Assembly: GCA_030429765.1 (NCBI GenBank)
Contig: JAUIER010000009.1
Location: 49,941 to 113,940, forward strand
Length of the DNA: 64,000 nt
From: a bacterium
GTDB lineage: Bacteria > Omnitrophota > Gorgyraeia > Zapsychrales > Zapsychraceae
Reading direction: 5' to 3'
Below the pieces are notes generated by a model that saw only the letters and a program-made list of their open reading frames with translations, had not been told where the DNA came from and made no database searches. The position numbers and the translations under genes were made by a program. Shown piece after piece: positions 11,509 to 64,000 of this stretch (the first letter of the stretch is position 1; every line of letters starts with the position of its first letter).

Positions 11509-11606
11509 ATTTGGGTGTGAATCAAAAGGCATATGAAGGCCCATAAATAACTTAAATATATGGTATAAAACAACTTATATGGTGATTATGCTGATCTCAA
11601 ATTGTG

Positions 11607-11635: not shown

Positions 11636-11738
11636 GAATGACAAAATTGAGCTAAGTATATACGAATACTTTGAGTTACGTCTAATTCTTGACCAACTAA
11701 GGTGTTCGGGGAGATGAATCATACATTCAAGGATTTCC

Positions 11739-11812: not shown

Positions 11813-11855
11813 GTTTACCAAGACCTAATAATTATCCCTAGATAAAGGACAGAGC

Positions 11856-12578
11856 GTGGAGACTTCGGTAAAGGATCAAATAAAAAAACTAGTCGAAATA
11901 CAAAAGTTGGATGGTGAAATCTATGATCTCAACAAAGAGATCAAGGAAAAACCGCTGCTGATTGATGAGCTCAAGGAACAGTTCGAAACCACCAAGGCTC
12001 ATCTTAATCAATTGGAAGCTGAAGCCAAAGCGGTCCTGGTTGCCCGTAAAGATTTTGAACTGGAGCTTCAATCCAAAGAGGATGCCATCGCCAAGTCCAA
12101 TGCAGATTTGTCGCAGATCAAGACCAACAAGGAGTATACGGCCAAGGTCAACGAGATCGAAAGTATAAAAGCCGATAAGTCTCAAACCGAAGAAAAAATT
12201 CTCAAGTCATACGATCAGGTCGATAAAATCAATGTCGATATAGATAAAGAAAAAGTCGTTGTCGGTGAGCGTGAAAAGGAATACTTAAGTAAGAAAAAGG
12301 AAATTGAAGACGAGATTAAGGTTCTACAGGATCGTGTTCAAGTTCTCGACGGACAGCGAAAGCAAATTGCCCCGGATATCGATCCGCCGTTACTAGCTCA
12401 ATATGAAAAGCTGCTGCAGCACAAAGAGGGGCGCGCGATTGTGGCGGTACACGGAACGTCATGCGGTGGATGCTACATGAATGTCATGCAGCAAAGTCTT
12501 AATCTGATCAAGATGCACACGGAAGTGGTCCGTTGCGATTATTGTTCGCGGATGCTCTACATCGAGGATGATCTTTGA
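11856..12578 (+). CDS. Coiled-coil protein with C-terminal C4 zinc ribbon (COG1579 family)
   Basis: The start codon is GTG with an AAGGA RBS. A long coiled coil precedes CGGCYMNV....CDYCSRMLY. Confidence 0.75.
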   Translation: METSVKDQIKKLVEIQKLDGEIYDLNKEIKEKPLLIDELKEQFETTKAHLNQLEAEAKAVLVARKDFELELQSKEDAIAKSNADLSQIKTNKEYTAKVNEIESIKADKSQTEEKILKSYDQVDKINVDIDKEKVVVGEREKEYLSKKKEIEDEIKVLQDRVQVLDGQRKQIAPDIDPPLLAQYEKLLQHKEGRAIVAVHGTSCGGCYMNVMQQSLNLIKMHTEVVRCDYCSRMLYIEDDL

Positions 12579-27966: not shown

Positions 27967-28578
27967 GTGAAAAAGTTTAAGACGGTTTTAAGCATGGCCG
28001 CAGCCATTATGATCGCCATGAGCGGGGCGGCGTACGCGGCGGTGACGAACAACAGTCCGGCGCCGGACTTTACGCTCACAGACTCAAACGGCAATTCACA
28101 TTCGCTGTCTGACTTTGCGGGAAAATATGTGGTGCTCGAATGGGTCAACTATGACTGTCCGTTTGTCAAAAAGTTCTACCGTTTTGGAGATATGCAGGGA
28201 TTGCAGGAAGACTTAACCGGACAGGATGTGATCTGGCTGTCGATCAATTCGTCAGCGACCGGTAAGCAAGGAGCGTACGGGCCGGATGAAGTCAATCAAA
28301 TTATGGCCAACAGCGAGGCCCAACCCACGGCGTATCTTTTCGATACCGACGGGACGGTGGGCCGTCTGTACGGCGCCAAAACGACACCTCACATGTATGT
28401 CATCAACCCGGACGGTGATTTGATCTATCAGGGTGCCATCGACAGCATTGCGAGTGTGGATTCGTCGGACATCGCTGAGGCGGACAACTACGTCCTTCAG
28501 GCTTTAAGCCAGGCATCAGCCGGTGATGCTATTACAGATCCCGTCACCAAACCCTACGGCTGTTCTGTAAAATACTAA
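27967..28578 (+). CDS. Secreted thioredoxin-fold (redoxin/peroxiredoxin-like) protein
   Basis: It has a signal peptide and FAGKYVVLEWVNYDCPFVKKFY with a single active-site Cys. Confidence 0.55.
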   Translation: MKKFKTVLSMAAAIMIAMSGAAYAAVTNNSPAPDFTLTDSNGNSHSLSDFAGKYVVLEWVNYDCPFVKKFYRFGDMQGLQEDLTGQDVIWLSINSSATGKQGAYGPDEVNQIMANSEAQPTAYLFDTDGTVGRLYGAKTTPHMYVINPDGDLIYQGAIDSIASVDSSDIAEADNYVLQALSQASAGDAITDPVTKPYGCSVKY

Positions 28579-48195: not shown

Positions 48196-48816
48196 ATGGC
48201 ACAGAAGAACAAGTCAGTGGTGGCGGTAATCATTGTCGCGGTATGTGTGGCCGTCGTTGTGGGAGTAAATTATTTACAGGGACAAAAGACGGTTCAGTCG
48301 GCCCAAGGGCGGGCCAAGGGAAATCCGGATTCCAATATTAAGGTTGTCGAATTCATTGACTTTCAATGTCCGGCCTGCGCCTCCGGTGCGAAATTTCTCA
48401 ATAAGTACATCAAAGACAACCCGGATCAGATCCATTTGGAGATGAAATATTTTCCGCTCAAAGGTCATGTGCACGGGATGCTCAGCGCACGATTTACCGA
48501 ATGCGCGGCGAGACAAGGCAAGTTTTGGGAGATGCATGATAAACTGATCGATAATCAAAGTGATTGGAAAAAGTTAATCAATGCCTATCCATCGTTTGAA
48601 GTGATGGCTCAGCAGATCAATCTGGATATGACCAAACTCAATACCTGTCTGGATGATACACGCGTGGATGAGGTGATTAACAAGCATAAAGAAGAGGGTA
48701 AGCAAAAGGGTGTGCGTAGTACGCCGACATATTTTGTGAATGGGCAAATCGTTGTCGGGCCGGGCAATCTCAAAAAAGAATTGGAAAAATTATCTAAGGG
48801 AGCTTCAGAAAACTAA
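48196..48816 (+). CDS. DsbA-like thioredoxin-domain protein, membrane-anchored
   Basis: A TM anchor, then FIDFQCPACAS (CxxC). The track ORF starts at 48163. Confidence 0.7.
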   Translation: MAQKNKSVVAVIIVAVCVAVVVGVNYLQGQKTVQSAQGRAKGNPDSNIKVVEFIDFQCPACASGAKFLNKYIKDNPDQIHLEMKYFPLKGHVHGMLSARFTECAARQGKFWEMHDKLIDNQSDWKKLINAYPSFEVMAQQINLDMTKLNTCLDDTRVDEVINKHKEEGKQKGVRSTPTYFVNGQIVVGPGNLKKELEKLSKGASEN

Positions 48817-49250
48817 TGTTGGCTGTCCTGAGAATCCTGTTTGGAATGATTTTTGTGGTATCGGGGTTTGAGAAATTGGTCTCTCCGTACCAGAACTTTC
48901 TGTATGTTATTCAAGGGTATCAGATCGTGCCCGCTGGTTTGGACGTCATCGTGGCGCAGGTGTTTCCATGGATAGAACTTCTCATCGGTTTGTTTATCGT
49001 CCTGGGTCTCTGGGTGCGCTGGTCGCTGATCGGCGGGATGGGAATGGTTCTGACATTTTTGACCATTGTCGGCCAGGCCCTTATTCGGAAATTGCCAATC
49101 GATGAATGCGGGTGTTTTGGTGAACTGATTTCATTTCCTCCGCAGGTTGTGTTTATGATTGATTCGGCGTTGCTCATCTGTGCGATAGTCCTGCTCAAAC
49201 GGCTCGACAAATCTTCAAGATTTTCATTGGACCGATACTTTAATGACTAA
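48816..49250 (+). CDS. DoxX/MauE-family membrane protein
   Basis: Four TM helices; the N-terminus is MLAVLRILFGMIFVVSGFEKL. Confidence 0.65.
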   Translation: MLAVLRILFGMIFVVSGFEKLVSPYQNFLYVIQGYQIVPAGLDVIVAQVFPWIELLIGLFIVLGLWVRWSLIGGMGMVLTFLTIVGQALIRKLPIDECGCFGELISFPPQVVFMIDSALLICAIVLLKRLDKSSRFSLDRYFND

Positions 49251-50727
49251 ATATTCGTCCGTAATTCTAAGTTTGATTATGGTGTTGAGTATGAGTATTC
49301 CTGCCTCCGGCGACAATTTTATCAAGAAGCCTAATGTCAGCGGACAATTTTATGACGCGGACGGTCAACGTCTGTCCAGAGGATTGGATGACATGTTCCG
49401 TGAGGCCTCTGTGGAGCCGCTGACCGAGCCGGTGGAGATTATTATCGCGCCGCACGCGGGATATGTGTATTCCGGGGCAACTGCAGCGCATAGTTTCAAA
49501 GCGGTCAAAAATCAGAAAATTTCGACGGTTGTGATTTTAGCTCCCAGTCATTTCTATGGCCTTTCCGGTATCTCTGTCTGGGAGCAAGGCGGATTCGAAA
49601 CGCCGCTGGGCGTGGCCGAGGTGGATGCGGAATTCACCCGGGCTCTGCTGGAGTCGGACGACGCAGTATCGTTTGATCGCAAGGCATTCGACAAAGAACA
49701 TTCGCTGGAAGTGGAGATCCCTTTTGTGCAGCGGACATTTCCCGACGCGAAAATTGTTCCCGTAGTCATGGGGCAGCCTCATCCGGACAAATTGGTGAAG
49801 TTCGCAAAGGCGCTCGACGGACTGATGGGTGAACGTGAAGATGTGCTTGTTGTCGTGAGTACGGACTTTTCACATTATCACGAGGACAAGATAGCTCGTA
49901 AGTTGGATCAGGCCACGATTGAGGCGGTGCGATCGTTGGACGCGCAAAAAGTGTATGAAGGTTGCCGCACGCGTGAGATGGAGATGTGCGGATGTATTCC
50001 CGTGGTCACATCAATGCTGTTGGCCCAGTTGCGCGGGGCCACGCAAGTAGATTTGCTGAAGTATGCGAATTCGGGAGATGTGAGTGGTGACCGGGACCGG
50101 GTGGTCGGATACGGTGCGTTGATCTTTCGTCAGAAAAGCGCTAGCGCTGCGGCATCGGATCAAGCGTTGTCGGATCCGCAAAAACGTCGTCTTTTGGCCA
50201 TCGCGCGACAAGCCATTGATTTGTATGTCAGCGAGGGGAAAACGGTTGACGTTCAAGAAAGCGACACACGGTTGTTGGAGGAAGAAGGGGCGTTTGTCTC
50301 GATTTATAGACATGGCCGGCTGCGTGGATGTATCGGTAATATTTTGGGAAATGGGCCTTTATGTTTAACCGTGCGTGATGTCGCTATATCGTCGGCGGTG
50401 CGAGATCACCGTTTTAAACCGCTGCAGAAGGATGAGCTCGACGACATAGATCTGGAGGTTTCTGTGTTGTCTAAGCCTCGCCGGATTAAGGACATCAACG
50501 AGATTGAGATGGGTAAGCACGGGGTGATTATTTCGCAGGGACGCAACAGTGGTGTATTTTTGCCGCAGGTGGCCACGTCGACGGGGTGGTCGCGTGATGA
50601 ATTTTTATCGGAATTATGTTCCCAGAAGGCCGGGTTGCCCAGGGATTGCTGGAAGGATCCCGACCGGGTGAACATTGAAATATTTTCGGCGGATGTCTTC
50701 GCCGATAAAGATTTTGCCAATCCCTAA
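49243..50727 (+). CDS. Signal-peptide-bearing fusion of MEMO1-family (AmmeMemoRadiSam protein B-like) and AMMECR1 (protein A-like) domains
   Basis: The signal peptide is MTKYSSVILSLIMVLSMSIPASG. The MEMO motifs are IIAPHAGYVYSG and VVVSTDFSHY. The AMMECR1 motif is RHGRLRGCIGN. Confidence 0.8.
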   Translation: MTKYSSVILSLIMVLSMSIPASGDNFIKKPNVSGQFYDADGQRLSRGLDDMFREASVEPLTEPVEIIIAPHAGYVYSGATAAHSFKAVKNQKISTVVILAPSHFYGLSGISVWEQGGFETPLGVAEVDAEFTRALLESDDAVSFDRKAFDKEHSLEVEIPFVQRTFPDAKIVPVVMGQPHPDKLVKFAKALDGLMGEREDVLVVVSTDFSHYHEDKIARKLDQATIEAVRSLDAQKVYEGCRTREMEMCGCIPVVTSMLLAQLRGATQVDLLKYANSGDVSGDRDRVVGYGALIFRQKSASAAASDQALSDPQKRRLLAIARQAIDLYVSEGKTVDVQESDTRLLEEEGAFVSIYRHGRLRGCIGNILGNGPLCLTVRDVAISSAVRDHRFKPLQKDELDDIDLEVSVLSKPRRIKDINEIEMGKHGVIISQGRNSGVFLPQVATSTGWSRDEFLSELCSQKAGLPRDCWKDPDRVNIEIFSADVFADKDFANP

Positions 50728-50754
50728 AACACGCGTCCGGCACGGCTACCGGCC

Positions 50755-51399
50755 GTGATATTGCCCGGATTGATTGAGCGGATAACGATGTCGACCAAGT
50801 TAATCCTTCCTATCAATGTTTTATGTCAATTAGCTGGTCTGTTTGTATTCATAACGTATCCTGATTTTCGTCTATTTGCCGTCTTTATCCCGCTATCTGT
50901 GGCTTTCAACTCCATACGTTCCACCCGTGTCCGCAATACGTACATATCCCTGTTTGTGATTGTCTGGATGTTGTTGTTTCAGTACGAATCGATTCGCACG
51001 TTTTATCTCAATCAAAACTTTAAAAAAGACTTTCCCAAAACCCGGTTTCTGTTTCCACCGGCTGGCTGGATCATGTTTTACAATGTCGGTAATTCGGCGG
51101 GATATATCGAGGTGTTCGGTTTCAAAGACGGCGTGCCGCAATTTATAGATCCGCATGACATCTTTGAAACGCGTACAATCGGCTACGATAATATTCATCG
51201 AGGCATTCTGGGCGCGGTCAGCGATCGTAATCCTCAAAAGGCGATGCAGTTCTGCCGATTCCTCAATTACAAGTTTCCGTACTTTGATAAATTTTACGTC
51301 GCGGCATCGTATCATCCGGATCTGGTCAAAGAACGGTTTGAACGCCGCCAGCGAATCTTGTATCAGTGTGATGAAAATCAGATCAAGTTCATGAAATGA
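50755..51399 (+). CDS. Hypothetical membrane protein
   Basis: It has three to four N-terminal TM helices and overlaps the downstream HTTM gene. Confidence 0.4.
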   Translation: MILPGLIERITMSTKLILPINVLCQLAGLFVFITYPDFRLFAVFIPLSVAFNSIRSTRVRNTYISLFVIVWMLLFQYESIRTFYLNQNFKKDFPKTRFLFPPAGWIMFYNVGNSAGYIEVFGFKDGVPQFIDPHDIFETRTIGYDNIHRGILGAVSDRNPQKAMQFCRFLNYKFPYFDKFYVAASYHPDLVKERFERRQRILYQCDENQIKFMK

Positions 51400-52661
51400 A
51401 ATTTATAAAATCCATATGGTCCCGCTTATTTCTGGAAGAACGCTCATCGATGAGTTTGAGTGTGTTTCGTATGGCGGTGGCATTCACCGTCTTTGCGCAT
51501 GTGTTCCCGTCGCTGATGCATCCGCATGACAATTATTTGCCGACGGCCTTTCGCGAGTTTAATGCTAGTATTTTTCCGGTTTATATTCTTGAATGGGTGA
51601 TCCAGAGTCCGGCATGGGTTATTTATTTGTTCACCGGGCTGTTTTGCCTATTTTCATTTTGCTTTTTTGTAGGCTTTTTGTCGCAGTTCAGCGCAATTGC
51701 GACAATGATCTGCTGTTACTATTTTTACGCGCTTAACAGTTTTCACGTCGGGACATTATCATGGGATATCCTACTGGTGACATTGTTCCTGATGTGTCTG
51801 GTGCCGTATCATGGCGATTATTTTTCAGTCGACAGTTTTCTTAAGGGGAGGGAGGGGTGGAGGCGCAAACGTCCGTATTTTCTGCAGCGGTTGCTTCAGG
51901 TACAGATCGCGTTTACGTTTTTCTATACAGCATTATGGAAGATTTATCCTAAAGGTAATTGGCTTCAGGATAATCCGATTCACTATTTGATGAACATGCC
52001 CCCGCCGGGTGTAACCAAATGGTTTTTGTTGCGGGATGTGTTGCGCGATAAGCCGGAGATTTGTTATTGGATTGGTGTCGGTGTGATCGTCGCTGAATTC
52101 CTGATGCTGTTTTTGCTGTTTATCCGGCGGACCAGATCGTCCGCGATTTATGCCGGTATATTTTTTCATATCGTGCTGATCCTCACGCTCGATGTGCCGG
52201 CGACATTTTTCTTTTTATTTCCCGCGCAACTACTTTTATTTATCAATCCGGACCATTGGTTGGATTGGATTGAACAAAAGCGTGCGTATCATCGGTCGGC
52301 CAGCCGGCCCGTATTGCTTTATGACGGTGATTGTCGATTCTGCCGTTTTTGTGTAAAGCGGATTCAGATCATGGATATGTATGCCCGCTACCGCTATACA
52401 CCCTATCAATCGATTCCGCAGTTAGCGTCGATCCATCCATCCCTGACCCTCGCAATGTGCAGGCGTGAAGTGATTCTGGTTGAACCGTCTGGGAAAATTC
52501 GCGGCGGAATTGACGCGCTTCGCCGGATGAGCCTGAACCTTCCGATGATGTACCTATGGATTCCTCTGCTATATCTGCCCGGGATGGGCATTCTAGGATC
52601 CGCGATTTATCGAGTGATTGCCCGAAATCGTGGACGCATTCGCTTGCCGCAAATGTCCTAG
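51396..52661 (+). CDS. HTTM-domain (vitamin K-dependent gamma-carboxylase-like) membrane protein fused to DCC-family thiol-disulfide oxidoreductase (DUF393)
   Basis: The N-terminal HTTM-like TM region is LSVFRMAVAFTVFAHVF. The C-terminus LLYDGDCRFCRFCVKRI is the DCC CxxC motif. Confidence 0.65.
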   Translation: MKFIKSIWSRLFLEERSSMSLSVFRMAVAFTVFAHVFPSLMHPHDNYLPTAFREFNASIFPVYILEWVIQSPAWVIYLFTGLFCLFSFCFFVGFLSQFSAIATMICCYYFYALNSFHVGTLSWDILLVTLFLMCLVPYHGDYFSVDSFLKGREGWRRKRPYFLQRLLQVQIAFTFFYTALWKIYPKGNWLQDNPIHYLMNMPPPGVTKWFLLRDVLRDKPEICYWIGVGVIVAEFLMLFLLFIRRTRSSAIYAGIFFHIVLILTLDVPATFFFLFPAQLLLFINPDHWLDWIEQKRAYHRSASRPVLLYDGDCRFCRFCVKRIQIMDMYARYRYTPYQSIPQLASIHPSLTLAMCRREVILVEPSGKIRGGIDALRRMSLNLPMMYLWIPLLYLPGMGILGSAIYRVIARNRGRIRLPQMS

Positions 52662-52880
52662 TCTGTCCAACTGAGTCCTATTTAAAAAATCTTTTTAAAC
52701 TATTTATTTTTCAGGGACTTATACGAAAAAATCCACTCACCTCAATTTGCGTATTACTGCCCGAATAAGGCCTCGAATCAGCCATTTCAGTCCCCTCCAA
52801 ATGCTCAAAAATTAATCAAAAAAAATATTGCTAGACATACCGCTTTTGCTAGTATATGTAAGGTGGCACTTTAATATATA

Positions 52881-52946
52881 TAAGTAGACGGTTTATAAAT
52901 AGTTATAAGTAGACGGTTTATTATACATATTAAGTAGACGGTTTAT
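52881..52946 (+). repeat. Three direct copies of 16-nt TAAGTAGACGGTTTAT at 25-nt spacing
   Basis: Copies at 52881-52896, 52906-52921 and 52931-52946. They are related to the REP-like unit TAAGTAcatGGTAC. Confidence 0.6.
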
Positions 52947-53254
52947 AAATGACCAAAGGGGGAGGGAAGAGATCCCCCGGTCGGACATTGTATTTAAAGA
53001 GGACGGGGGGTCCTTAATCGTCGTCGGCACGACGCCATCCTGAGATCGACATTCCGAACCATGAGGGTGAAGACATTAGTTTCCACGCGCTAATCAAAAA
53101 TGACATAAGTCACATCCAATTCAGTTGCTTACGTCAATCACTTGTCCAGAAGCTCATCACTTTTTCTGTGATGGATGGATACAGTGATGCTTGCCAAGCA
53201 GGGCGTTTCATCAGCAACACAATTCCAGTCGGAACAACAGAATCCAAACAAAAA

Positions 53255-53425
53255 AAGAACCAGGTACGTATTTATAAATTAGTACACGGTACTTTAAATA
53301 ATTTAAGTAGATGGTTGAATAATATAAAAAGGTACCATCTTAAAGATATTAATAAAGTAGCATGCACTATAAATAATTATAGTACATGGAACTATAAAAT
53401 AAAAAGGTGCCATCTTAGGTAGCTC
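53255..53425. repeat. REP-like degenerate palindrome array upstream of rayT
   Basis: It contains AGTACACGGTACTT, TAAGTAGATGGTTGAAT, AAAGGTACCATCTTAAAG, TAGCATGCACTA, TAGTACATGGAACTA and AAAGGTGCCATCTTAGG. Confidence 0.5.
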
Positions 53426-54091
53426 ATGCCAAGAGCCAGTCGCATAACACAGGCAGGGGTATTACATCACGTCATCTCGAGAGGGAATGCCAATCAGGAC
53501 CTCTTTCGGGATATCGATGATAATCGCAAATACCTCGCGTTATTAAGAGAAGCTGTGAGTCAGTTTCCTTTATATGTCTACAATTATGCGCTGACTAAAA
53601 ATACGGTGCACCTGTTGGTAGAGCCCAAGCAGGACGGGATGCTTTCCAAGGCCATGGAGAGTGTCACCAGGGAGTATGCCAAATATTTCAATCAGAAATA
53701 CAATAGTATCGGACATGTGTTTGCCGGCCGATTCAAAAGTTTCGCGGTCCAACCGGACCAATTTTTCCTCGCCTGTAGTCGATATATCGACTTAAATCCA
53801 GTCAATCACGAACTTGTCAAAGAGGCCAAAGATTATAACTTCAGCGGATACGGTGTATTGGCCTTTGGACATGAGGGAGAGTACGCCGTTGATCAGCATG
53901 ATTTGTATAAGGCCTTGGGCGGAACGGATCATGATCGTCAGTTGGTATACCGCAGTTTAGTGCATCAGTATCTGGGCGCGGAATTAGATTTGGAGAATCG
54001 AAAGAGCGGAATCCTTGGATCTAAAGAGTTTAAGACGCTGGTAAAAAGCGGAGCCAATGTCAAAGATGTCAAGTTTAAGAAAGGTTTATAA
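53426..54091 (+). CDS. REP-associated tyrosine transposase (RAYT; IS200/IS605-like Y1 HUH transposase)
   Basis: HHVISRGNANQDLF...YLALL is followed by the HUH motif (NTVHLLVEP) and a catalytic Tyr region RFKSFAVQPDQFFLACSRYIDLNPV. Confidence 0.8.
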   Translation: MPRASRITQAGVLHHVISRGNANQDLFRDIDDNRKYLALLREAVSQFPLYVYNYALTKNTVHLLVEPKQDGMLSKAMESVTREYAKYFNQKYNSIGHVFAGRFKSFAVQPDQFFLACSRYIDLNPVNHELVKEAKDYNFSGYGVLAFGHEGEYAVDQHDLYKALGGTDHDRQLVYRSLVHQYLGAELDLENRKSGILGSKEFKTLVKSGANVKDVKFKKGL

Positions 54092-54345: not shown

Positions 54346-54442
54346 TCTTTGTTAAATCATCCTTTGAATCTGTTTCTAGGCGTTTTAGGACCATATGGGC
54401 CAATGAGTTTCAAGGTTGTATGTTCCAACAAAGGATCGGCAG

Positions 54443-57400
54443 TTGTTAAAGCGTAAGTCTAAAATTTGGTTGATAAGGTTGCTCGCCATTCTATGGATGG
54501 GTGTCGCTTCCTTATATATGTCGACGGCGGCATTTGCCCAGTTAGACATAGAGGCCATTTTTGACACGAACGATGGAACCAGCGGTTTCGATATGCAGGA
54601 TGTGGACAACACCACACAGGTCTTTATCGATTCAGACGGTAATATCGTGACACGTGGATGCGTGCGTCTGGACAGCGGCTTAACGGAATGTACTGATTCT
54701 GAGACATTGATTGTCGATGGAACGTTGGGAGTCGGAGTGGTTGCCCCGGCTACAGTATTCCACGTGGATTCCAATGCGGGAGCCGCCACGCCGATCATGA
54801 CGGTTGAAAACACGGTCGGCGACTTCCAGGTTCATATCTTTAGCGGAAGCCCGGAAAGCAATGTGATCGGTTCGCCGGGGGATCTGTGTGTCGATCCGGC
54901 TGGTGGTATGGTCTACATCAAATCTGCCGGGGCCGGAACCAATACGGGTTGGACCGAAGTTGCAACGGGTGGAGGTATGCCGCAATGGACACAGACCGGA
55001 ACGGTCGTTCATCCGAACACGATGTCGGATGATGTGGCTATCGGCGGGACCAGTGAGGCCACGGCCGAGGTGTTCTTCCGAAACGATGGTCAAACAGTAT
55101 TTAATGAACAAGGGCGCGCGGTGAGTTTCCGCATCGAAGGTGACAATGTTCCGAACCTATTTGTGGTCAATGGAACGCTTGACCGTATCGGTATCGGAAC
55201 CTCAACGCCGGATGCGGCGGCGATCCTGGATCTGTCCGCCACCAATGCGGCCTTACGCTTAACACGTTTGAGCGATCCATCCACCGACATCGCCGTACCG
55301 CGCAACGGTATGATCGTCTATGATTCGACGGATGCTGAACTCCAGGCGTATGTCGGCGGAAGTTGGATTATGTTGGCGGCCGGCGGTATGATCGATATTT
55401 CGTCGGATACCAATCTAACCGCCGGTTTTGGAATTACGCTTACGGGCGATACCGTCAGTGTCACCGACCTGTATGTTCAAACAGCTGGCGATTCAATGCA
55501 GGGATCGCTGCAGTTTGTCGGGGTTGGATCAGACATTACCACCGGTACCGGTGAAGATTTAGCCTTGATGCCGGATTCGGGTCGGGTTGGTATTGGTGTT
55601 ACAGCGCCGGATGCCGGAGCGATTCTTGATTTGAGCGCGACGGATAAAGCCCTTCGCCTGACACGATTGAGTGATCCAGCGACGGACATCGCCGTGCCTC
55701 GAAACGGTATGATCGTATACGACTCGACGGATGCCGAACTGCAAGCCTATGTCGGCGGCAGTTGGGTGATGTTGGCTGAGGGCGGCATGATTGACATTTC
55801 ATCCGATACCAACTTGACGGCTGGATTTGGAATCACCATCACCGGTGACACGATTAGTGTGACAGACCTGTATGTTCAAACCGCCGGTGATTCGATGCAG
55901 GGATCATTGCAGTTTGTCGGGGTGGGATCAGACATTACGACCGGTACCGGAGAAGATTTAGCGTTGATGCCGGATTCAGGGCGGGTCGGTATTGGTGTTA
56001 CAGCGCCGGATGCCGGGGCCATTCTTGATTTGAGCGCGACAGACAAAGCCCTTCGCTTAACACGCTTAAGTGATCCATCCACCGACATCGCTGTCCCACG
56101 CAACGGTATGATCGTCTATGACTCGACCGATGCCGAGCTGCAAGCCTATGTCGGCGGCAGTTGGGTGATGCTGGCTGAAGGCGGCATGATCGACATTTCA
56201 TCTGATACCAACCTGACGGCCGGATTTGGTATCACGATTACCGGTGATACGGTGAGCGTCACGGATCTGTACGTGCAAACGGCAGGCGATTCAATGCAGG
56301 GAACCTTGCAGTTTGTGGGTGTGGCAACCGATATCACAACAGCTGCAGGTGAAGATCTAACATTACAACCAGGAACGGGCGGTGACGTTGTTGTGTCACA
56401 ATCTCGACTGGGCGTTGGAACGAGCACGCCGGGTGTCAGTACTATTCTTGATTTAAGTGCGACCGATCGCGCGCTACGTGTCACACGCTTGAGTGATCCT
56501 TCCACCGATATCGTGACACCGCGCAACGGTATGATCGTCTATGACTCGACGGATGCTGAACTGCAAGCCTATGTGGGCGGCAGTTGGGTGATGCTGGCGG
56601 AAGGCGGTATGATTGATATTTCTTCCGATACCAACTTGACCGCCGGATTCGGTATCACGATTACCGGAGATACGGTGAGCGTGACTGACCTATATCTACA
56701 AACCGCCGGTGATTCAATGCAGGGATCGCTTGAATTTGCGGGTGTCGCAACGGATATCATAACCTCTGCCGGTGAAGACTTGACGTTGCAGCCTGGAACC
56801 GGGGGTGACGTCGTTGTATCACAATCACGTTTAGGTGTAGGAACGAGCACGCCGGGTGTCAGTACTATTCTTGATTTAAGTGCGACCGATCGCGCGCTAC
56901 GTGTCACACGCCTGAGTGATCCGACGACCGATGTCGCGACACCGCGTAATGGTATGATCGCCTACGACTCAACGGATAATGAACTCATGGCGTATATCAA
57001 CGGATCATGGCAGATGCTGGCAGAAGGCGGCATGATCGATATTTCATCTGATACCAACTTGACGGCCGGATTCGGTATCACGATTACGGGAGATACCGTC
57101 AGCGTCACGGATCTATATGTTCAGACCGCGGGTGATTCAATGCAGGGATCATTGCAATTCGTGGGCGTTGGTTCTGACATTACGACAGGCACCGGTGAGG
57201 ATCTGGCCTTGATGCCGGGTTCGGGTCGGGTCGGTATTGGCGTCACAGCGCCGGACGCCGGGGCCATTCTTGATTTGAGCGCGACAGACAAAGCCCTTCG
57301 CCTGACACGCCTGAGCGATCCATCCACCGACATCGCTGTCCCACGAAACGGTATGATCGTCTATGACTCAACCGATGCCGAGCTGCAAGCTTATGTGGGC

Positions 57401-60400
57401 GGCAGCTGGGTGATGCTGGCAGAAGGTGGCATGATCGACATTTCATCTGATACCAACTTGACGGCCGGATTCGGTATCACGATTACCGGTGATACCGTGA
57501 GCGTCACAGATCTATATGTGCAAACAGCGGGCGATTCGATGCAGGGATCATTACAGTTTGTCGGAGTGGCAACCGATATCACGACAGCCGCGGGTGAAGA
57601 TCTGACCTTACAACCGGGCGCCGGCGGTGACGTTGTTGTATCCCAATCTCGACTGGGCGTTGGAACGAGCACGCCGGGTGTCAGTACAATTTTAGATTTG
57701 AGCGCGAGTGATCGGGCGCTACGGGTTACGCGACTCACTGATCCAGCGGCGAACATTGCGACACCACGCAATGGTATGATCGCGTACGATTCATCTGATA
57801 ACGAACTGCAGGCGTATGTCAATGGATCATGGGTGATGTTGGCCGAAGGCGGCATGATCGATATTTCTTCCGATACCAATTTGACCGCTGGATTCGGTAT
57901 CACTATCACGGGCGACACAGTGAGCGTGACGGATCTGTATGTTCAAACGGCCGGGGATTCAATGCAGGGATCCTTGCAGTTTGTCGGAGTGGCAACCGAT
58001 ATCACGACGGCCGCGGGTGAAGATCTGACCTTGCAACCGGGTGCCGGGGGTGACGTCGTTGTGTCACAATCCCGTTTAGGTGTTGGAACCAGCACGCCGG
58101 ATGTGAGTACCATACTTGACTTGAGCGCGACTGATCGCGCGCTGCGTGTCACTCGATTAAGTGATCCATCGACGGATATCGCGACACCGCGTAACGGTAT
58201 GATCGTCTACGACTCGACCGATGCCGAACTGCAAGCGTATGTGGGTGGTAGTTGGGTGATGCTCGCTGAGGGCGGCATGATCGATATCTCCGATGACACC
58301 AACCTAACGGCTGGATTCGGCATCACCATCACGGGTGATACGATCAGCGTGACGGATCTCTACCTACAAACAGCCGGTGATTCCATGAGCGGGACATTGC
58401 AGATGGCGCAATTGTCAGATCCGACCATGACGTTCACACCATCCGGTGCGGATACAGATTTCTGGATCGGCGTACAGGACAATAACAATAATACCAATGA
58501 TGATTCCTTCCAAATCGGCGCGGGAAGTACGGCCGGTTCTAATTCTTATTTCGCGATTACATCCGACGGGACAATCGATATTAGCGGCGCGACGCTACTC
58601 AAACTACCGGCGTCGGCTTCTCCGGTATTGCCAACATCGGCAGGTGAGGTTGTGCTGGATCTTAACGCCCTAAGCGGAACAACCGGACAAGGATTGCTGA
58701 CGGTCTCCGATGGTCGACAGCAAACGTATGTTGTAGCGACAGATACACTCCCGCCGGCCGACGGACGAATACCAAAATACGACGCGGCCAGCGGTACGAT
58801 TCAGTGGTTGCCGGATAACGATACCGGCTTCCCGGCATGGGATTCTATCCAGGATGCCTCCGGACAGGGAACAATTGATTATCTGACATTCTCGCAACGC
58901 ATTGAAACCAGTATTACCGACGGTACGGGCGGTATCGGTCTTGAATTGCGATCGACGGATCTGGGTGTCGGTACGTCGGATGTGGTCTTGTTAGATCTGC
59001 AGGCGCAGCAGAATGATGATCCGAACTTTGTTCCATTACGTATTCGGGACGACATCGGCGGAACAGCGGATACGCTGGTTGAAGTGGATTATCAAGGTAG
59101 TATCTTGACGGAAGGTACGTTGCGGGTTGCGGCGGATGCGGACCCATCCATCACCTTTGAACCATCGGGTGGCGACACGAATTTCTGGTTAGGCGTTCAG
59201 GATGATGCAGGCGGAGATGACGATGATGTCTTCCAAATCGGTGAAGGTACCGTCGGTGGTAATATTTACTTGACCGTTGATTCCAACGGACGTATTGGGG
59301 TTGGAACATCAACGCCGGCGCTCAGTTCATTGCTAGACCTATCCGCCACAGATGCGGCACTGCGTATCACACGCGTTAGTGATCCATCCGTTAACATTGC
59401 GACACCGCGTAACGGTATGATCGTCTATGATTCGACCGACAATGAACTTCAAGCCTATATTAATGGAAGCTGGGTGATGCTGGCCGAAGGCGGCATGATT
59501 GATATCTCTGATGATACCAACTTGACGGCAGGTTTTGGTATTACGATCACAGGCGACACGGTGAGCGTGACAGATCTATATGTTCAATCCGCGGGTGATT
59601 CGATGAGCGGATCATTGCAATTCGTCGGAGTTGATTCAGATATCACCACGGGTACAGGTGAAGATCTGGCCTTGATGCCGGATTCAGGACGTGTCGGTGT
59701 TGGAACGACATCACCGGATGCCGGTGCGATTCTTGATCTAAGCGCGACGGACAAAGCGCTTCGGTTAACTCGTCTAAGTGATCCTTCAACAGATATCGCC
59801 GTTCCACGCAATGGTATGATTGTCTACGATTCGACGGATGCGGAACTGCAAGCGTATGTGGGTGGTAGTTGGGTAATGCTGGCTGAAGGGGGCATGATCG
59901 ATATCTCCGATGATACCAACTTGACGGCTGGATTCGGTATCACGATTACCGGCGACACGGTCAGTGTCACAGATTTATATGTTCAGACAGCCGGTGATTC
60001 GATGACAGGATCATTGCAATTCGTCGGGGTGGCCAGTGACATCATCACGGCCACGGGTGAAGATCTGACCTTGCGACCGGGAACCGGCGGTGATGTGGTT
60101 GTCGCCCAATCGCGTTTGGGTGTCGGAACCAGCACACCGGGTGTGAGTACGATTCTTGATTTGAGCGCGACGGACCGCGCGCTACGCGTCACACGCTTGA
60201 GTGATCCGACCACCGACGTGGTAACGCCGCGTAATGGTATGATCGCCTATGACTCAACGGATAATGAATTGATGGCGTACATCAACGGATCATGGCAGAT
60301 GCTGGCTGAAGGCGGCATGATCGATATCTCTGATGATACGAACTTGACGGCCGGCTTTGGTATTACGATCACAGGCGACACGGTGAGCGTGACCGATCTA

Positions 60401-63400
60401 TATGTTCAGACAGCCGGAGATTCGATGAGCGGATCATTACAGTTTGTCGGGGTTGATTCGGATATCACCACCGGAACCGGTGAAGATTTGGCGTTGATGC
60501 CGGATTCAGGACGTGTCGGTGTTGGAACGACATCGCCGGATGCCGGAGCGATTCTTGATCTAAGTGCGACGGACAAAGCGCTTCGGTTAACTCGTCTGAG
60601 TGATCCTTCAACAGACATCGCCGTTCCACGTAACGGTATGATCGTCTATGACTCGACGGACGCGGAACTGCAAGCGTATGTGGGTGGTAGTTGGGTAATG
60701 CTGGCTGAAGGGGGCATGATCGATATCTCTGACGATACCAACTTGACGGCAGGTTTTGGTATTACGATTACAGGTGATACGGTGAGTGTCACAGATTTAT
60801 ATGTTCAGACAGCCGGTGATTCGATGACAGGATCATTGCAATTCGTCGGGGTGGCCAGTGACATCATCACGGCCACGGGTGAAGATCTGACCTTGCGACC
60901 GGGAACGGGCGGTGATGTGGTTGTCGCCCAATCGCGCTTGGGTGTCGGAACCAGCACACCGGGTGTGAGTACGATCCTTGATTTGAGCGCCGCGGACCGC
61001 GCGTTACGCGTCACCCGGCTCACAGATCCGTCGGCCAATATTGCCACACCGCTGAACGGTATGATCGCCTACGATTCAACAGACGATGAATTACAAGCGT
61101 ATGTCAACGGATCATGGGTGATGCTGGCCGAAGGCGGCATGATCGATATCTCCGATGATACCAACTTGACGGCAGGTTTTGGTATTACGATCACTGGTGA
61201 CACCGTGAGCGTGACCGATCTTTATGTTCAAACCGCGGGTGATTCGATGACAGGATCATTGCAGTTCGTCGGGGTGGCCAGTGACATCATCACGGCCGCA
61301 GGTGAAGATCTGACCTTACGACCGGGAACCGGCGGTGATGTGGTTGTCGCGCAATCGCGCTTGGGTGTCGGAACCAGCACGCCGGGCGTGAGTACGATCC
61401 TTGATTTGAGCGCCGCGGACCGAGCGTTACGCGTCACACGGCTCACAGATCCATCGGCCAATATTGCCACACCGCTGAATGGTATGATCGCCTATGATTC
61501 AACAGACAATGAATTACAAGCATATGTCAACGGATCATGGGTGATGCTGGCTGAAGGTGGAATGATCGATATCTCAGATGATACGAATTTGACAGCTGGA
61601 TTTGGTATCACCATTACAGGTGATACGATCAGTGTCACGGATCTGTATGTTCAAACAGCCGGTGATTCGATGACCGGTACATTACAATTCGTCGGTGTCA
61701 CAAATGATATCACCACCGCGACGGGCGAGGATTTGACATTACGTCCGGGAACCGGCGGTGATGTGGTGATTAGTCAGGGGACATTGACCTTCGACGGTGT
61801 GACGACTGATATCGCGACATCAGCCGGTGAAGATCTCACCATTCAGCCGGGAACCGGCGGTGATGTGATTGTGTCGCAATCGCGATTGGGTGTTGGTACA
61901 ACCGCGCCGGATGTAAGTACCATTTTGGATCTAAGCGCGACGGACCGAGCGCTACGCGTCACGCGATTGACTGATCCGTCCGCCAACATTGCCACACCAC
62001 GCAACGGTATGATCGTCTATGACTCTACGGACAACGAATTACAGGCGTATGTCAACGGATCATGGGTGATGCTGGCTGAGGGTGGCATGATCGACATCTC
62101 CGATGATACCAACTTGACGGCAGGTTTTGGTATTACGATCACGGGTGACACGGTAAGCGTTACGGATCTGTATGTTCAAACCGCCGGTGATTCGATGAGC
62201 GGATCATTACAGTTTGTCGGCGTTGATTCCGATATCACAACCGGCACAGGTGAAGATTTGGCCTTAATGCCGGATTCAGGTCGAGTGGGTGTTGGAACGA
62301 CATCACCGGATGCGGGAGCTATTCTTGACTTAAGTGCAACAGACAAGGCGCTTCGGTTAACTCGTCTGAGTGATCCTTCAACAGACATCGCGGTTCCACG
62401 TAACGGTATGATCGTCTATGACTCGACGGATGCGGAACTGCAAGCGTATGTGGGCGGCAGTTGGGTGATGCTGGCCGAAGGCGGCATGATCGATATCTCC
62501 GACGACACCAACCTCACGGCTGGCTTTGGTATTACGATTACCGGTGACACGGTCAGCGTCACGGATCTGTATGTTCAAACCGCCGGTGATTCGATGAGCG
62601 GCACGTTGCAGATGGCGCAATTGACTGATCCGTCGATCACCTTTACGCCGGACGGGGCCGACAGTGACTTCTGGGTAGGTGTTCAAGACAATGATAACGC
62701 TGCGAATGACGATGTCTTCCAGATCGGCGCCGGCAGCACTCCGGGCACCAATGCCTACTTCGCGATAACCACGGACGGAACCATCGACCTAAGCGGTTCA
62801 ACACTCGTTAAATTACCAAGCGGACCAACACCGGTGCTTCCACTGTCAGCGGGTGAAATTGTGCTTGATACCAATTTCTACTCCGCCAATCAGGGGGCGC
62901 TTCGACTATTTGATGGAACACAAGAAGCTCATGTCGTCAGTGTGACAGGCGGTCTTCCGGGTGATCAATTTGTTCCAAAATATTCATCGGGTACCGGTCT
63001 CATCACATGGCAAGCTGATGCGGATAGCGGGGCGCCGGCTTGGAATGCGATACTGGATGCGTCGGCTGTGGGAACAATTGACTTCAGGACATTTGAACAA
63101 CGCTTGGAAACCAGTATTACCGACGGTGTCGGCGGAACGGGATTGACATTGCGCGCGACAGATTTGGGAGTCGGTACCAGTGACGTGATTATGCTTGATA
63201 TCGACGCGTCGGCCGATGATGATCCAAACTTCATTCCATTGCGGATCACCGACAACACGAGTGCAGAGACTCTAATGGAGGTAGACTATCAAGGTAGTAT
63301 TCTCACCGAAGGAACCATCCGTGTGGCCGCGGACGCGGATCCGACCGTAACGTTTGAGCCGTCAGCCGGAGATACCAACTTCTGGTTGGGTGTTCAGGAT

Positions 63401-64000
63401 GATGCCGGTGGTGACGATGACGATCTCTTCCAGATTGGAGAAGGTGCGGCCGGCGGAAATGTTTATCTGACCATCGATTCAAATGGTCGTATCGGGGTCG
63501 GGACGACCGCGCCAGGTGCGAGTACCTTGCTGGATCTGTCCGCAACCGACGCGGCGCTTCGTATTACCCGCGTGAGCGATCCATCGGTCAACATCGCTTC
63601 GCCGCAGAACGGTATGATCGTTTATGATTCAACCGATAATGAATTGCAGGCCTACATTGGCGGCAGTTGGGTGATGCTGGCCGAAGGCGGTATGATTGAT
63701 ATCTCTGACGATACAAACTTGACGGCCGGATTTGGTATTACCTTGACCGGTGACACGGTGAGCGTGACGGATCTGTATGTTCAAACCGCCGGTGATTCGA
63801 TGAGTGGTTCACTACAATTTGTGGGCGTTGACTCGGATATCACCACCGGAACGGGTGAAGATCTGGCCTTGATGCCGGATTCAGGTCGAGTGGGTGTTGG
63901 TACGACATCACCGGATGCCGGAGCGATTCTTGATCTAAGTGCAACGGACAAAGCGCTTCGCCTGACACGCTTAAGTGATCCTTCAATAGACATTGCCGTC
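54443..64000 (+). CDS. Giant secreted tandem-repeat protein (putative surface/adhesin-like), 5' complete and 3' truncated by window end (more than 3180 aa in window)
   Basis: The frame (position = 2 mod 3) is open from the stop at 54404-54406 to nt 64000 with no stop. The predicted start is TTG 54443 with AAAGGA upstream. The signal peptide is KRKSKIWLIRLLAILWMGVASLYMSTAAFA|Q. A unique N-domain follows, then repeats. The gene is absent from the ORF track because it has no stop. Confidence 0.85.
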   Translation, partial: MLKRKSKIWLIRLLAILWMGVASLYMSTAAFAQLDIEAIFDTNDGTSGFDMQDVDNTTQVFIDSDGNIVTRGCVRLDSGLTECTDSETLIVDGTLGVGVVAPATVFHVDSNAGAATPIMTVENTVGDFQVHIFSGSPESNVIGSPGDLCVDPAGGMVYIKSAGAGTNTGWTEVATGGGMPQWTQTGTVVHPNTMSDDVAIGGTSEATAEVFFRNDGQTVFNEQGRAVSFRIEGDNVPNLFVVNGTLDRIGIGTSTPDAAAILDLSATNAALRLTRLSDPSTDIAVPRNGMIVYDSTDAELQAYVGGSWIMLAAGGMIDISSDTNLTAGFGITLTGDTVSVTDLYVQTAGDSMQGSLQFVGVGSDITTGTGEDLALMPDSGRVGIGVTAPDAGAILDLSATDKALRLTRLSDPATDIAVPRNGMIVYDSTDAELQAYVGGSWVMLAEGGMIDISSDTNLTAGFGITITGDTISVTDLYVQTAGDSMQGSLQFVGVGSDITTGTGEDLALMPDSGRVGIGVTAPDAGAILDLSATDKALRLTRLSDPSTDIAVPRNGMIVYDSTDAELQAYVGGSWVMLAEGGMIDISSDTNLTAGFGITITGDTVSVTDLYVQTAGDSMQGTLQFVGVATDITTAAGEDLTLQPGTGGDVVVSQSRLGVGTSTPGVSTILDLSATDRALRVTRLSDPSTDIVTPRNGMIVYDSTDAELQAYVGGSWVMLAEGGMIDISSDTNLTAGFGITITGDTVSVTDLYLQTAGDSMQGSLEFAGVATDIITSAGEDLTLQPGTGGDVVVSQSRLGVGTSTPGVSTILDLSATDRALRVTRLSDPTTDVATPRNGMIAYDSTDNELMAYINGSWQMLAEGGMIDISSDTNLTAGFGITITGDTVSVTDLYVQTAGDSMQGSLQFVGVGSDITTGTGEDLALMPGSGRVGIGVTAPDAGAILDLSATDKALRLTRLSDPSTDIAVPRNGMIVYDSTDAELQAYVGGSWVMLAEGGMIDISSDTNLTAGFGITITGDTVSVTDLYVQTAGDSMQGSLQFVGVATDITTAAGEDLTLQPGAGGDVVVSQSRLGVGTSTPGVSTILDLSASDRALRVTRLTDPAANIATPRNGMIAYDSSDNELQAYVNGSWVMLAEGGMIDISSDTNLTAGFGITITGDTVSVTDLYVQTAGDSMQGSLQFVGVATDITTAAGEDLTLQPGAGGDVVVSQSRLGVGTSTPDVSTILDLSATDRALRVTRLSDPSTDIATPRNGMIVYDSTDAELQAYVGGSWVMLAEGGMIDISDDTNLTAGFGITITGDTISVTDLYLQTAGDSMSGTLQMAQLSDPTMTFTPSGADTDFWIGVQDNNNNTNDDSFQIGAGSTAGSNSYFAITSDGTIDISGATLLKLPASASPVLPTSAGEVVLDLNALSGTTGQGLLTVSDGRQQTYVVATDTLPPADGRIPKYDAASGTIQWLPDNDTGFPAWDSIQDASGQGTIDYLTFSQRIETSITDGTGGIGLELRSTDLGVGTSDVVLLDLQAQQNDDPNFVPLRIRDDIGGTADTLVEVDYQGSILTEGTLRVAADADPSITFEPSGGDTNFWLGVQDDAGGDDDDVFQIGEGTVGGNIYLTVDSNGRIGVGTSTPALSSLLDLSATDAALRITRVSDPSVNIATPRNGMIVYDSTDNELQAYINGSWVMLAEGGMIDISDDTNLTAGFGITITGDTVSVTDLYVQSAGDSMSGSLQFVGVDSDITTGTGEDLALMPDSGRVGVGTTSPDAGAILDLSATDKALRLTRLSDPSTDIAVPRNGMIVYDSTDAELQAYVGGSWVMLAEGGMIDISDDTNLTAGFGITITGDTVSVTDLYVQTAGDSMTGSLQFVGVASDIITATGEDLTLRPGTGGDVVVAQSRLGVGTSTPGVSTILDLSATDRALRVTRLSDPTTDVVTPRNGMIAYDSTDNELMAYINGSWQMLAEGGMIDISDDTNLTAGFGITITGDTVSVTDLYVQTAGDSMSGSLQFVGVDSDITTGTGEDLALMPDSGRVGVGTTSPDAGAILDLSATDKALRLTRLSDPSTDIAVPRNGMIVYDSTDAELQAYVGGSWVMLAEGGMIDISDDTNLTAGFGITITGDTVSVTDLYVQTAGDSMTGSLQFVGVASDIITATGEDLTLRPGTGGDVVVAQSRLGVGTSTPGVSTILDLSAADRALRVTRLTDPSANIATPLNGMIAYDSTDDELQAYVNGSWVMLAEGGMIDISDDTNLTAGFGITITGDTVSVTDLYVQTAGDSMTGSLQFVGVASDIITAAGEDLTLRPGTGGDVVVAQSRLGVGTSTPGVSTILDLSAADRALRVTRLTDPSANIATPLNGMIAYDSTDNELQAYVNGSWVMLAEGGMIDISDDTNLTAGFGITITGDTISVTDLYVQTAGDSMTGTLQFVGVTNDITTATGEDLTLRPGTGGDVVISQGTLTFDGVTTDIATSAGEDLTIQPGTGGDVIVSQSRLGVGTTAPDVSTILDLSATDRALRVTRLTDPSANIATPRNGMIVYDSTDNELQAYVNGSWVMLAEGGMIDISDDTNLTAGFGITITGDTVSVTDLYVQTAGDSMSGSLQFVGVDSDITTGTGEDLALMPDSGRVGVGTTSPDAGAILDLSATDKALRLTRLSDPSTDIAVPRNGMIVYDSTDAELQAYVGGSWVMLAEGGMIDISDDTNLTAGFGITITGDTVSVTDLYVQTAGDSMSGTLQMAQLTDPSITFTPDGADSDFWVGVQDNDNAANDDVFQIGAGSTPGTNAYFAITTDGTIDLSGSTLVKLPSGPTPVLPLSAGEIVLDTNFYSANQGALRLFDGTQEAHVVSVTGGLPGDQFVPKYSSGTGLITWQADADSGAPAWNAILDASAVGTIDFRTFEQRLETSITDGVGGTGLTLRATDLGVGTSDVIMLDIDASADDDPNFIPLRITDNTSAETLMEVDYQGSILTEGTIRVAADADPTVTFEPSAGDTNFWLGVQDDAGGDDDDLFQIGEGAAGGNVYLTIDSNGRIGVGTTAPGASTLLDLSATDAALRITRVSDPSVNIASPQNGMIVYDSTDNELQAYIGGSWVMLAEGGMIDISDDTNLTAGFGITLTGDTVSVTDLYVQTAGDSMSGSLQFVGVDSDITTGTGEDLALMPDSGRVGVGTTSPDAGAILDLSATDKALRLTRLSDPSIDIAV
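55180..64000 (+). repeat. In-frame tandem coding repeats: 399-nt (133-aa) and 423-nt (141-aa) units, 822-nt dimers, and a 4209-nt higher-order super-repeat
   Basis: DLYVQTAGDSMQGSLQFVG recurs at 55471, 55870 and 56269 (a 399-nt period), then at 56691 (a 423-nt period). The large module MSGTLQMAQLSDP... recurs at 58401 and 62610 (4209 nt = 1403 codons). Near-identical units lie 822 nt apart. Confidence 0.9.

Follow-up and report, generated by a model that had tools for sequence, protein, structure and literature searches.

The five-gene block and its products

The 64-kb window studied here (64,000 nucleotides of contig JAUIER010000009.1, assembly GCA_030429765.1, from an Omnitrophota bacterium) contains at positions 48196-52661 five closely packed open reading frames (ORFs) on the + strand, the third of which encodes a protein fusing a Memo domain to an AMMECR1 domain. 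The ORF list and the domain scans bore out these positions and the tightly packed or overlapping, co-directional arrangement that had been described earlier from the DNA letters without database searches (hereafter the sequence-only reading). According to Pfam, the first gene (48196-48816) encodes a membrane-anchored DsbA-like thioredoxin-fold protein and the second (48816-49250) a four-helix membrane protein of the MauE/DoxX family. They are followed by the gene of the 494-aa Memo-AMMECR1 fusion (49243-50727; Pfam and NCBIfam), by a gene for an orphan membrane protein of 203 aa without a family match, here called Unk (50788-51399), and by a gene whose product joins an HTTM domain to a DCC1-like domain (51396-52661; Pfam). 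A GGAG sequence lies 5 nt ahead of the ATG of the first gene at 48196. The start codon of mauE is placed on the stop codon of gene 1 (TAATG), genes 2 and 3 overlap by 8 nt (a translational coupling of the fusion to the two genes before it), genes 3 and 4 are separated by a 60-nt gap, and genes 4 and 5 are translationally coupled through an ATGA overlap. A scan for promoters and terminators gave no excess over shuffled sequence. In the window the block is flanked by pckA upstream and an IS200/RAYT-type gene downstream.

The product of gene 1 matches the Pfam families Thioredoxin_4 (83.4 bits) and DSBA (57.8 bits). It has a transmembrane (TM) anchor at residues 7-25, an active site C58-P-A-C61 and a second conserved cysteine pair, C103/C151, and all four cysteines are invariant in 30 homologues. 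Judged by the positive-inside rule, the thioredoxin-fold domain should face the periplasm. The product of gene 2 matches MauE (77.8 bits) and DoxX (35 bits), and its motif E-C98-G-C100-F-G, located in the TM3-TM4 loop, is invariant in 28 homologues; the basic C-terminal tail of the protein places this loop in the periplasm. The sequence-only reading had therefore named both families correctly. In E. coli, MauE proteins of two different phyla can stand in for DsbB, and experiments identified as their active site a CXC motif of the TM3-TM4 loop on the periplasmic side; it usually reads CGC and is followed by F-G (Gonzalez et al. 2026, bioRxiv 10.64898/2026.03.05.709764). The same study describes MauE as a generalist partner of DsbA-type proteins present in thousands of species, with MauA occurring in only about 10% of the MauE-bearing species. 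Genes 1 and 2 display every sequence feature of this pathway, namely a MauE protein with the CXC-F-G motif and a CxxC thioredoxin-fold partner predicted to face the periplasm. Since MauE can replace DsbB (10.64898/2026.03.05.709764) and the CGC-F-G and CPAC sites are conserved, the two proteins are best read as a DsbA/DsbB-type oxidative-folding pair, in which MauE, by analogy with its characterised relatives (10.64898/2026.03.05.709764), would be the DsbB-like quinone-linked re-oxidase of the DsbA-like protein. As in the described pathway, a functional analogue of DsbA/DsbB and VKOR, the four-helix MauE with its CGC-F-G motif adjoins, and is translationally coupled to, a DsbA-like CxxC protein. 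The difference is that the putative pair in the window sits in a conserved operon with an exported Memo-AMMECR1 protein.

The combination of a MauE-family protein with a thioredoxin-fold CxxC protein acting on a periplasmic enzyme also resembles the mauE/mauD genes for methylamine dehydrogenase maturation. However, the partner in the window is DsbA-like (Thioredoxin_4/DSBA) and not a TlpA/CcmG-like MauD, and neither mauA nor mauB was found among the neighbours, which are the part of the window that was checked for them (pckA, a CheX-like gene, the fusion, Unk, HTTM-DCC and RAYT). The reading of this locus as a mau cluster was rejected on these grounds.

In gene 3, the Memo domain, which has the LigB fold, extends over 49330-50121 (Pfam Memo, 232 bits) and the AMMECR1 domain over 50197-50700 (Pfam AMMECR1, 176 bits), both on the + strand. 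The protein scored 295.5 bits against TIGR04336 (protein B; cutoff 26, residues 28-295) and 177 bits against TIGR04335 (protein A; cutoff 99, residues 316-486), and the proposal that a single polypeptide unites the two families holds true. All of its 120 best relatives (52-64% identity) possess both Pfam domains, and every one with a named source belongs to Omnitrophota. For a wider comparison we used the 80 fusion loci that were the best matches in a scan of species-representative genomes, annotated with profiles built from the window proteins. In these 80 fusions the metal-site residues of the Memo domain (H71, H103, D208, H211 and C249) are invariant or nearly so, and the AMMECR1 motif R361-G-C363-I-G365 is invariant. 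Structures of human MEMO1 match the Memo domain at E 2e-19. The AMMECR1 domain contains in addition C459 and C469. The archaeal AMMECR1 structures 1VAJ, 1ZQ7 and 1WSC, which are of cytoplasmic proteins, share C363, C459 and mostly C469, which implies that these cysteines are functional thiols and not acquired disulfides.

Unk matched no Pfam or NCBIfam family. The sequence-only reading had listed it as a small membrane protein, which is right as regards the membrane but understates the rest, because the three TM helices of this 203-aa protein are followed by a conserved alpha/beta domain of about 100 aa, which the charge bias of the protein places in the periplasm. Alignment revealed as invariant features LFPPAGWIMF, DPH, R129, DN, R138 and C156/C194. 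Given the periplasmic placement of the domain, C156 and C194 are likely to form a DsbA-made disulfide. None of its 280 relatives carries a Pfam domain, and the single source name shown is Omnitrophota. The family is very small: an exhaustive profile search of 1.84 billion representatives yielded 48 clusters, all within the Unk family. The AlphaFold2 (AF2) model is confident (pLDDT 84), and comparison with the PDB revealed no relative in fold or sequence, with a best Foldseek match of E 0.27 and, in the profile search of PDB sequences, no match at E ≤ 10.

The HTTM (gamma-carboxylase-like) domain of gene 5 occupies 51447-52253 (Pfam HTTM, 53.9 bits, cutoff 27.7) and the DCC1-like/DUF393 thiol-disulfide oxidoreductase domain 52314-52640 (Pfam DCC1-like, 55.4 bits, residues 307-415), both on the + strand, so that this fusion too had been recognised correctly. 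The HTTM-DCC family is small, every match with a named source is from Omnitrophota, and its relatives, like those of Unk, share contigs with the Memo-AMMECR1 fusion. In a Foldseek search the AF2 model (pLDDT 84.5, pTM 0.80) retrieved 15 cryo-EM structures of human GGCX at E 1.7e-7 to 1.7e-4, and superposition gave TM-scores of 0.45-0.54 (about 0.53 over ~290 columns). In a weak profile alignment (E 0.056), the invariant K182 corresponds to human GGCX K218 and the invariant E234 to D263, whereas an invariant Leu takes the place of GGCX N290. The roles of the GGCX residues, including that of K218 as the catalytic base, are taken from bioRxiv 10.64898/2026.03.26.714578. The resemblance to GGCX/VKGC thus includes the fold and the catalytic Lys and acidic residue. 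However, the luminal carboxylase domain (human residues ~374-418 and beyond) had no match in the product of gene 5, where a DCC/DUF393 CxxC domain follows the HTTM domain instead, and the HTTM-DCC gene is preceded by that of an orphan protein with a periplasmic domain. As both the luminal domain and N290 are absent, we rejected a gamma-carboxylase function for gene 5; its HTTM domain would be at most epoxidase-like. The Leptospira VKGC orthologue reportedly possesses epoxidase activity only.

In the DCC motif D310-G-D-C313-R-F-C316, the residues D310, G311, C313 and C316 are invariant or nearly so. Eight TM-like helices and the positive-inside rule suggest that K182 lies on the periplasmic face and that the CxxC motif of the DCC domain (C313/C316) is probably on the cytoplasmic side. 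The envelope thiol-redox cluster proposed in the sequence-only reading needs correction on this point, as the DCC cysteines are more likely cytoplasmic than envelope-facing.

Export of the Memo-AMMECR1 fusion

The fusion begins with a Sec-type signal peptide (residues 1-23, 49243-49311 on the + strand; MTKYSSVILSLIMVLSMSIPASG before D) in which a hydrophobic core is followed by a small-x-small site, and the Memo domain starts after this leader at the conserved IKxPNVSGQFY. Nearly all full-length homologues among the 120 relatives have a leader with a basic N-terminus, 10-16 hydrophobic residues and a small-x-small site with A, S or G at positions -3 and -1 (e.g., AFS|D and AHA|D, compared to ASG|D in the window). 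In the 80 genome loci, which represent several phyla, the leader as a property is kept in 80 of 80, while its sequence has diverged. The leader-bearing fusions include those of Acidobacteriota, Zixibacteria, KSB1 and Ignavibacteria, and in some fusions of the latter three groups the leader contains a clear lipobox, indicative of a lipoprotein signal.

An alternative is that the hydrophobic N-terminus does not direct export, owing to a wrongly chosen start or to its being an N-out anchor, and that the protein is an ordinary cytoplasmic fusion of AmmeMemoRadiSam proteins A and B. The internal Met codons M13 and M17 could act as starts, and the ATG at 49243 has no strong Shine-Dalgarno sequence ahead of it. 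Moreover, about one third of the public gene calls for the fusion (P0004-P0116) begin at an internal Met inside the c-region of the signal peptide, which makes the export signal invisible in those database entries. On the other hand, the ATG at 49243 overlaps the mauE stop codon, as it does in the relatives, the radical S-adenosylmethionine (SAM) partner enzymes of sister clades carry twin-arginine translocation (Tat) motifs (see below), and the leader is present in all 80 loci without sequence conservation. We regard a cytoplasmic fusion as very improbable. The persistence of the leader despite its sequence divergence, together with the existence of independent Sec-type and lipoprotein-type versions, makes predicted export the only reasonable reading of these sequences. 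The signal peptide assumed in the sequence-only reading was thus corroborated, but the view that a fused and exported Memo-AMMECR1 protein is something unusual at this locus was not, as exported fusions are widespread. A literature search, which missed the main comparative study, turned up no account of exported Memo/AMMECR1 proteins or of radical SAM partners with Tat signals, so an earlier description is possible.

The radical SAM partner and conservation of gene order

Conserved Memo and AMMECR1 proteins occur in organisms as distant as archaea and humans; MEMO1 has been linked to cell motility and to metal and redox biology, and AMMECR1 to a human developmental syndrome. To our knowledge, no biochemical function has been established for Memo, for AMMECR1 or for the bacterial three-gene system, and we know of no solution for the function of the canonical AmmeMemoRadiSam system. 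Memo-AMMECR1 systems are said to have been treated by Burroughs et al. in 2019.

On the tree of fusion proteins, the window sequence falls into a single clade of 35 sequences from Omnitrophota (clade A; 47-60% identity to the window protein). After de-duplication, 34 clade A loci (513 kb) and 45 sister loci (group B) remained, read to ±10 kb around the related fusions. Radical SAM partner genes were counted with a TIGR04337-like profile built from 24 verified relatives; it superseded the CxxxCxxC motif alone, which overcounted (31/44). The whole 64-kb window contains no ORF of at least 100 aa with CxxxCxxC, and the profile gave no match at E ≤ 10 against its six-frame translation. Likewise, a TIGR04337-like gene is absent from all 34 loci of clade A (513 kb), so the remark that no radical SAM gene is nearby applies to the clade as well as to the window. 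In contrast, such a gene was detected in 32 of the 45 sister loci (37-45% identity; other Omnitrophota, Acidobacteriota and others), in 24 of these directly adjacent to the fusion on the same strand. All eight of the sister-locus enzymes tested scored 369-387 bits against TIGR04337 (cutoff 220). Loci bearing the thioredoxin-fold gene and mauE all lie within clade A, no clade A locus has an adjacent TIGR04337 radical SAM gene, and over the 79 loci the two kinds of adjacency are mutually exclusive.

Some motif-bearing candidates were rejected as the partner enzyme. Those at L042 proved to be MtaB and a SPASM maturase. The candidate at L032, a clade A member without the thioredoxin-fold gene and mauE, is a divergent pyruvate formate-lyase (PFL)-activase-like protein without an NCBIfam match that scored 35 bits against the TIGR04337-like profile; its gene (L032:10893-11948, - strand) encodes an SRKDFLK leader and is 3.4 kb away from the fusion, in the opposite orientation.

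The TIGR04337 enzymes of the sister lineages have 30-100 extra N-terminal residues (e.g., L059:8781-9932, L079:3453-4619, L080:6409-7722, L049:8877-9983 and L039:8826-10004). In Acidobacteriota and some other lineages the twin-arginine motif RRxFLK is part of this extension; elsewhere (other Omnitrophota) it comprises a Sec-like or TM segment. The NCBIfam Tat-signal model was the top match for four of six RR-type leaders tested, with one above the cutoff and two within about 1 bit of it. In those sister lineages the complete AmmeMemoRadiSam system is thus predicted to lie outside the cytoplasm, an unexpected place for a radical SAM enzyme. The exported fusion and the radical SAM gene of the Acidobacteriota loci repeatedly have a membrane polyferredoxin of the NapH/MauN type (Fer4_5) and members of two DUF362 families as neighbours (L072:3524-5233, L085:7621-8670 and L072:12083-13072, with 12-16 other Acidobacteriota loci; also L047:5426-6298), and these proteins are plausible electron donors to a periplasmic radical SAM enzyme.

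Because the sister radical SAM partners themselves carry export-type leaders, the contrast does not lie between a cytoplasmic and a periplasmic system. The sequence-only reading had opposed a periplasmic module to a cytoplasmic one; the module is real and predicted to be extracytoplasmic, but the systems with radical SAM enzymes also carry export leaders. The real contrast, as far as leaders and gene content tell, is between an exported system with a radical SAM enzyme and an exported system with DsbA/MauE, usually accompanied by Unk/HTTM-DCC. Like AmmeMemoRadiSam proteins, the product of gene 3 is well above the cutoffs of TIGR04335 and TIGR04336 and keeps the Memo ligands and the AMMECR1 RGCIG cysteine. 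It differs in that the A and B proteins are fused and bear a signal peptide, and in that DsbA/MauE and HTTM-DCC are the neighbours and no TIGR04337 gene is co-encoded at the locus. With A and B recognisable but a co-encoded radical SAM gene lacking, the window locus is not a canonical member of that system. The operon is real, conserved and uncharacterised, and it is a variant of a known but functionally unsolved system.

The order DsbA-like protein, MauE, fusion, Unk and HTTM-DCC is conserved in this one monophyletic Omnitrophota clade with varying flanks. The thioredoxin-fold gene and mauE precede the fusion in 23 of 31 evaluable clade A loci (26 when the thioredoxin-fold gene alone is counted), and Unk and HTTM-DCC follow it in 16 of 29 (19 when HTTM-DCC is counted). 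All four neighbours are present in 14 of 26 loci, and none of these 26 has Unk/HTTM-DCC without the thioredoxin-fold gene and mauE. In most loci of clade A the stop of mauE still overlaps the start of the fusion gene, at fusion identities of only 47-60%. At the same time the flanks of the block vary, with pckA, a CheX-like gene or a response regulator upstream and RAYT or a giant TPR protein downstream.

Many of the loci that the fusion tree places within the Omnitrophota clade (L009, L010, L012, L014, L017, L024, L028 and others) are labelled 'uncultured Planctomycetales bacterium', which is probably a taxonomic label problem of those metagenome-assembled genome submissions. Outside the clade, the exported fusion of an unrelated lineage (L058) is flanked by a leaderless separate Memo protein of 272 aa and a CcdA-type DsbD_TM thiol transporter (8535-9353, 9926-11410 and 11563-12261); this is a second, independent pairing of an exported fusion with a membrane thiol-redox protein. 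Downstream of the lipoprotein-type fusions of Zixibacteria and Ignavibacteria lies a gene for a Csd3-like M23 peptidase instead of a redox gene (L053:6271-7557, L066:7697-9046, L073:6581-7885 and L075:4166-5425), with a stop/start overlap in two of the four loci.

Possible functions of the operon and its surroundings

We put at about even chances the reading that the five genes form one operon of a single Omnitrophota clade encoding an extracytoplasmic machine around the Sec-exported Memo-AMMECR1 fusion. In such a machine the fusion would work on some substrate of the envelope, with no radical SAM activase encoded beside it. The DsbA/MauE pair would oxidise periplasmic thiols and hand the electrons to the membrane quinone, as DsbA and DsbB do, and would fold co-expressed exported clients, of which Unk with its C156/C194 pair is the clearest candidate; it may also recycle the catalytic thiols of the fusion. 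Unk and HTTM-DCC would constitute a second, separable quinone-dependent unit, and the fact that it never occurs without DsbA/MauE suggests that it depends on them.

Several observations weigh against this reading. Four of the 26 clade A loci (L021, L024, L027 and L032) have none of the four neighbours, and four more with both flanks evaluable keep the thioredoxin-fold gene, mauE and the fusion but lack Unk/HTTM-DCC (six when loci judged from the downstream flank only are included), which implies that no partner is obligatory in cis. The synteny of several loci extends beyond the block to Tricorn-like, SPOR, AsmA and PilZ genes, and this wider sharing inflates the apparent conservation of the block. 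A cysteine pair specific to the clade that would mark the fusion as a DsbA client was sought in the fusion and none was found. In addition, the TIGR04337 partner may be encoded elsewhere in the genome, and as MauE and DsbA are described as generalists, their adjacency to the fusion may be housekeeping at least in part. The linkage is thus conserved and nested, but not obligatory: the fusion occurs alone, with the thioredoxin-fold protein and MauE, or with these two and Unk/HTTM-DCC.

The main rival explanation draws on the same observations. It states that genes 1 and 2 are general disulfide machinery and genes 4 and 5 an unrelated module, brought next to the fusion by synteny and co-transcription, and that the fusion uses a radical SAM enzyme encoded elsewhere. 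The occurrence of MauE in thousands of species (10.64898/2026.03.05.709764) is in line with it, as are the clade members with the fusion alone or without Unk/HTTM-DCC, the ordinary cysteine pattern of the fusion and the shared genes beyond the block; 13 group B loci likewise have no adjacent radical SAM gene. However, the overlap of the mauE stop with the fusion start outlasts both the divergence of the fusion and the change of the immediate flanks. The mutual exclusion over the 79 loci (radical SAM gene in 0/34 clade A against 32/45 sister loci) and the lack of a TIGR04337 gene in the 513 kb of clade A and in the window also speak against it. We therefore consider this explanation somewhat unlikely, though a serious competitor.

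A more specific proposal is that, in an extracytoplasmic AmmeMemoRadiSam system, the role of the exported and oxygen-sensitive radical SAM activase has been taken over by a quinone module resembling the vitamin K cycle. Electrons from DsbA would pass through MauE to the membrane quinone, and the HTTM domain, acting as a quinol epoxidase, would use the resulting quinol to make a strong base or oxidant that activates C-H bonds at the periplasmic face. The missing domain for substrate binding in the periplasm would be contributed by Unk, and the CxxC motif of the DCC domain would recycle the quinone epoxide from the cytoplasmic side. Such a scheme would fit the swap, on the tree, between the radical SAM gene and the thioredoxin-fold/MauE block (with or without Unk/HTTM-DCC) beside orthologous exported fusions. 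It would also fit the retention of K182 and E234 (human K218 and D263) in a domain that superposes on the GGCX membrane domain and has no luminal carboxylase domain, the ATGA coupling of Unk to HTTM-DCC, and the absence of this pair from loci without the thioredoxin-fold gene and mauE. AMMECR1 is strongly associated with anaerobes, and a variant free of radical SAM could be an oxygen adaptation. A precedent is provided by the VKOR-VKE modules of giant viruses, where a DsbB-type quinone reductase (VKOR) is paired with a truncated carboxylase-like epoxidase (bioRxiv 10.64898/2026.03.26.714578); the HTTM domain in the window is in a similar way genomically paired with a DsbB-type quinone-linked protein. 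Against the proposal, four clade A loci (or six, counting the downstream-only judgements) keep the thioredoxin-fold gene, mauE and the fusion without Unk/HTTM-DCC, N290 is not conserved and the sequence alignment with GGCX is weak (E 0.056). Moreover, epoxidase chemistry requires O2, which these Omnitrophota may not tolerate, HTTM-DCC may be linked to the fusion neither physically nor functionally, and the topology of the DCC domain is a prediction. On balance, we find a replacement of this kind improbable. If true, it would amount to a bacterial analogue of the vitamin K cycle performing C-H activation for a periplasmic Memo-AMMECR1 enzyme.

Returning to the extracytoplasmic operon as such, a lineage in which Memo and AMMECR1 are fused and exported and the radical SAM enzyme is exchanged for quinone- and thiol-handling membrane proteins narrows the possible chemistry of the system. 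The chemistry that it suggests is a redox reaction with a substrate in the envelope, one that can be driven either by a radical SAM activase or by quinone/thiol electron transfer, and the lineage offers a version free of radical SAM that is possibly more tractable for study. The twin-arginine signal on the radical SAM enzyme of the sister systems, if functional, would mean radical SAM chemistry outside the cytoplasm. The locus also adds candidates to two emerging groups, namely MauE proteins as DsbB substitutes and truncated carboxylase-like quinol epoxidases paired with DsbB-type proteins.

About 20 kb upstream of the operon, where the sequence-only reading had placed dsbD and a secreted redoxin, we located a full-length dsbD (25792-27906; DsbD_N, DsbD_TM and Thioredoxin_7) with the gene of a secreted AhpC/TSA-redoxin downstream of it (27967-28578). 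Their presence indicates that the organism has a reductive periplasmic thiol pathway besides the oxidative DsbA/MauE pathway, and this pathway could keep the catalytic cysteines of the exported fusion reduced.

Downstream of the operon, the AT-rich spacer 52868-53417 contains three 20-nt direct repeats (TAAGTAGACGGTTTATAAAT) at 52881, 52906 and 52931, a diverged copy at 53304, and 52-nt repeats at 53291 and 53366. These repeats are situated just upstream of the IS200/RAYT-type tyrosine transposase gene (53426-54091), and L001 and L002 have a Y1_Tnp gene at the equivalent position. The remaining part of the window, 54416-64000, is occupied by one ORF of more than 3194 aa that runs off the window end; its Pfam matches are only scattered DUF2793 and Glyco_hydro_2_N-like fragments, and its product is probably a giant surface protein.

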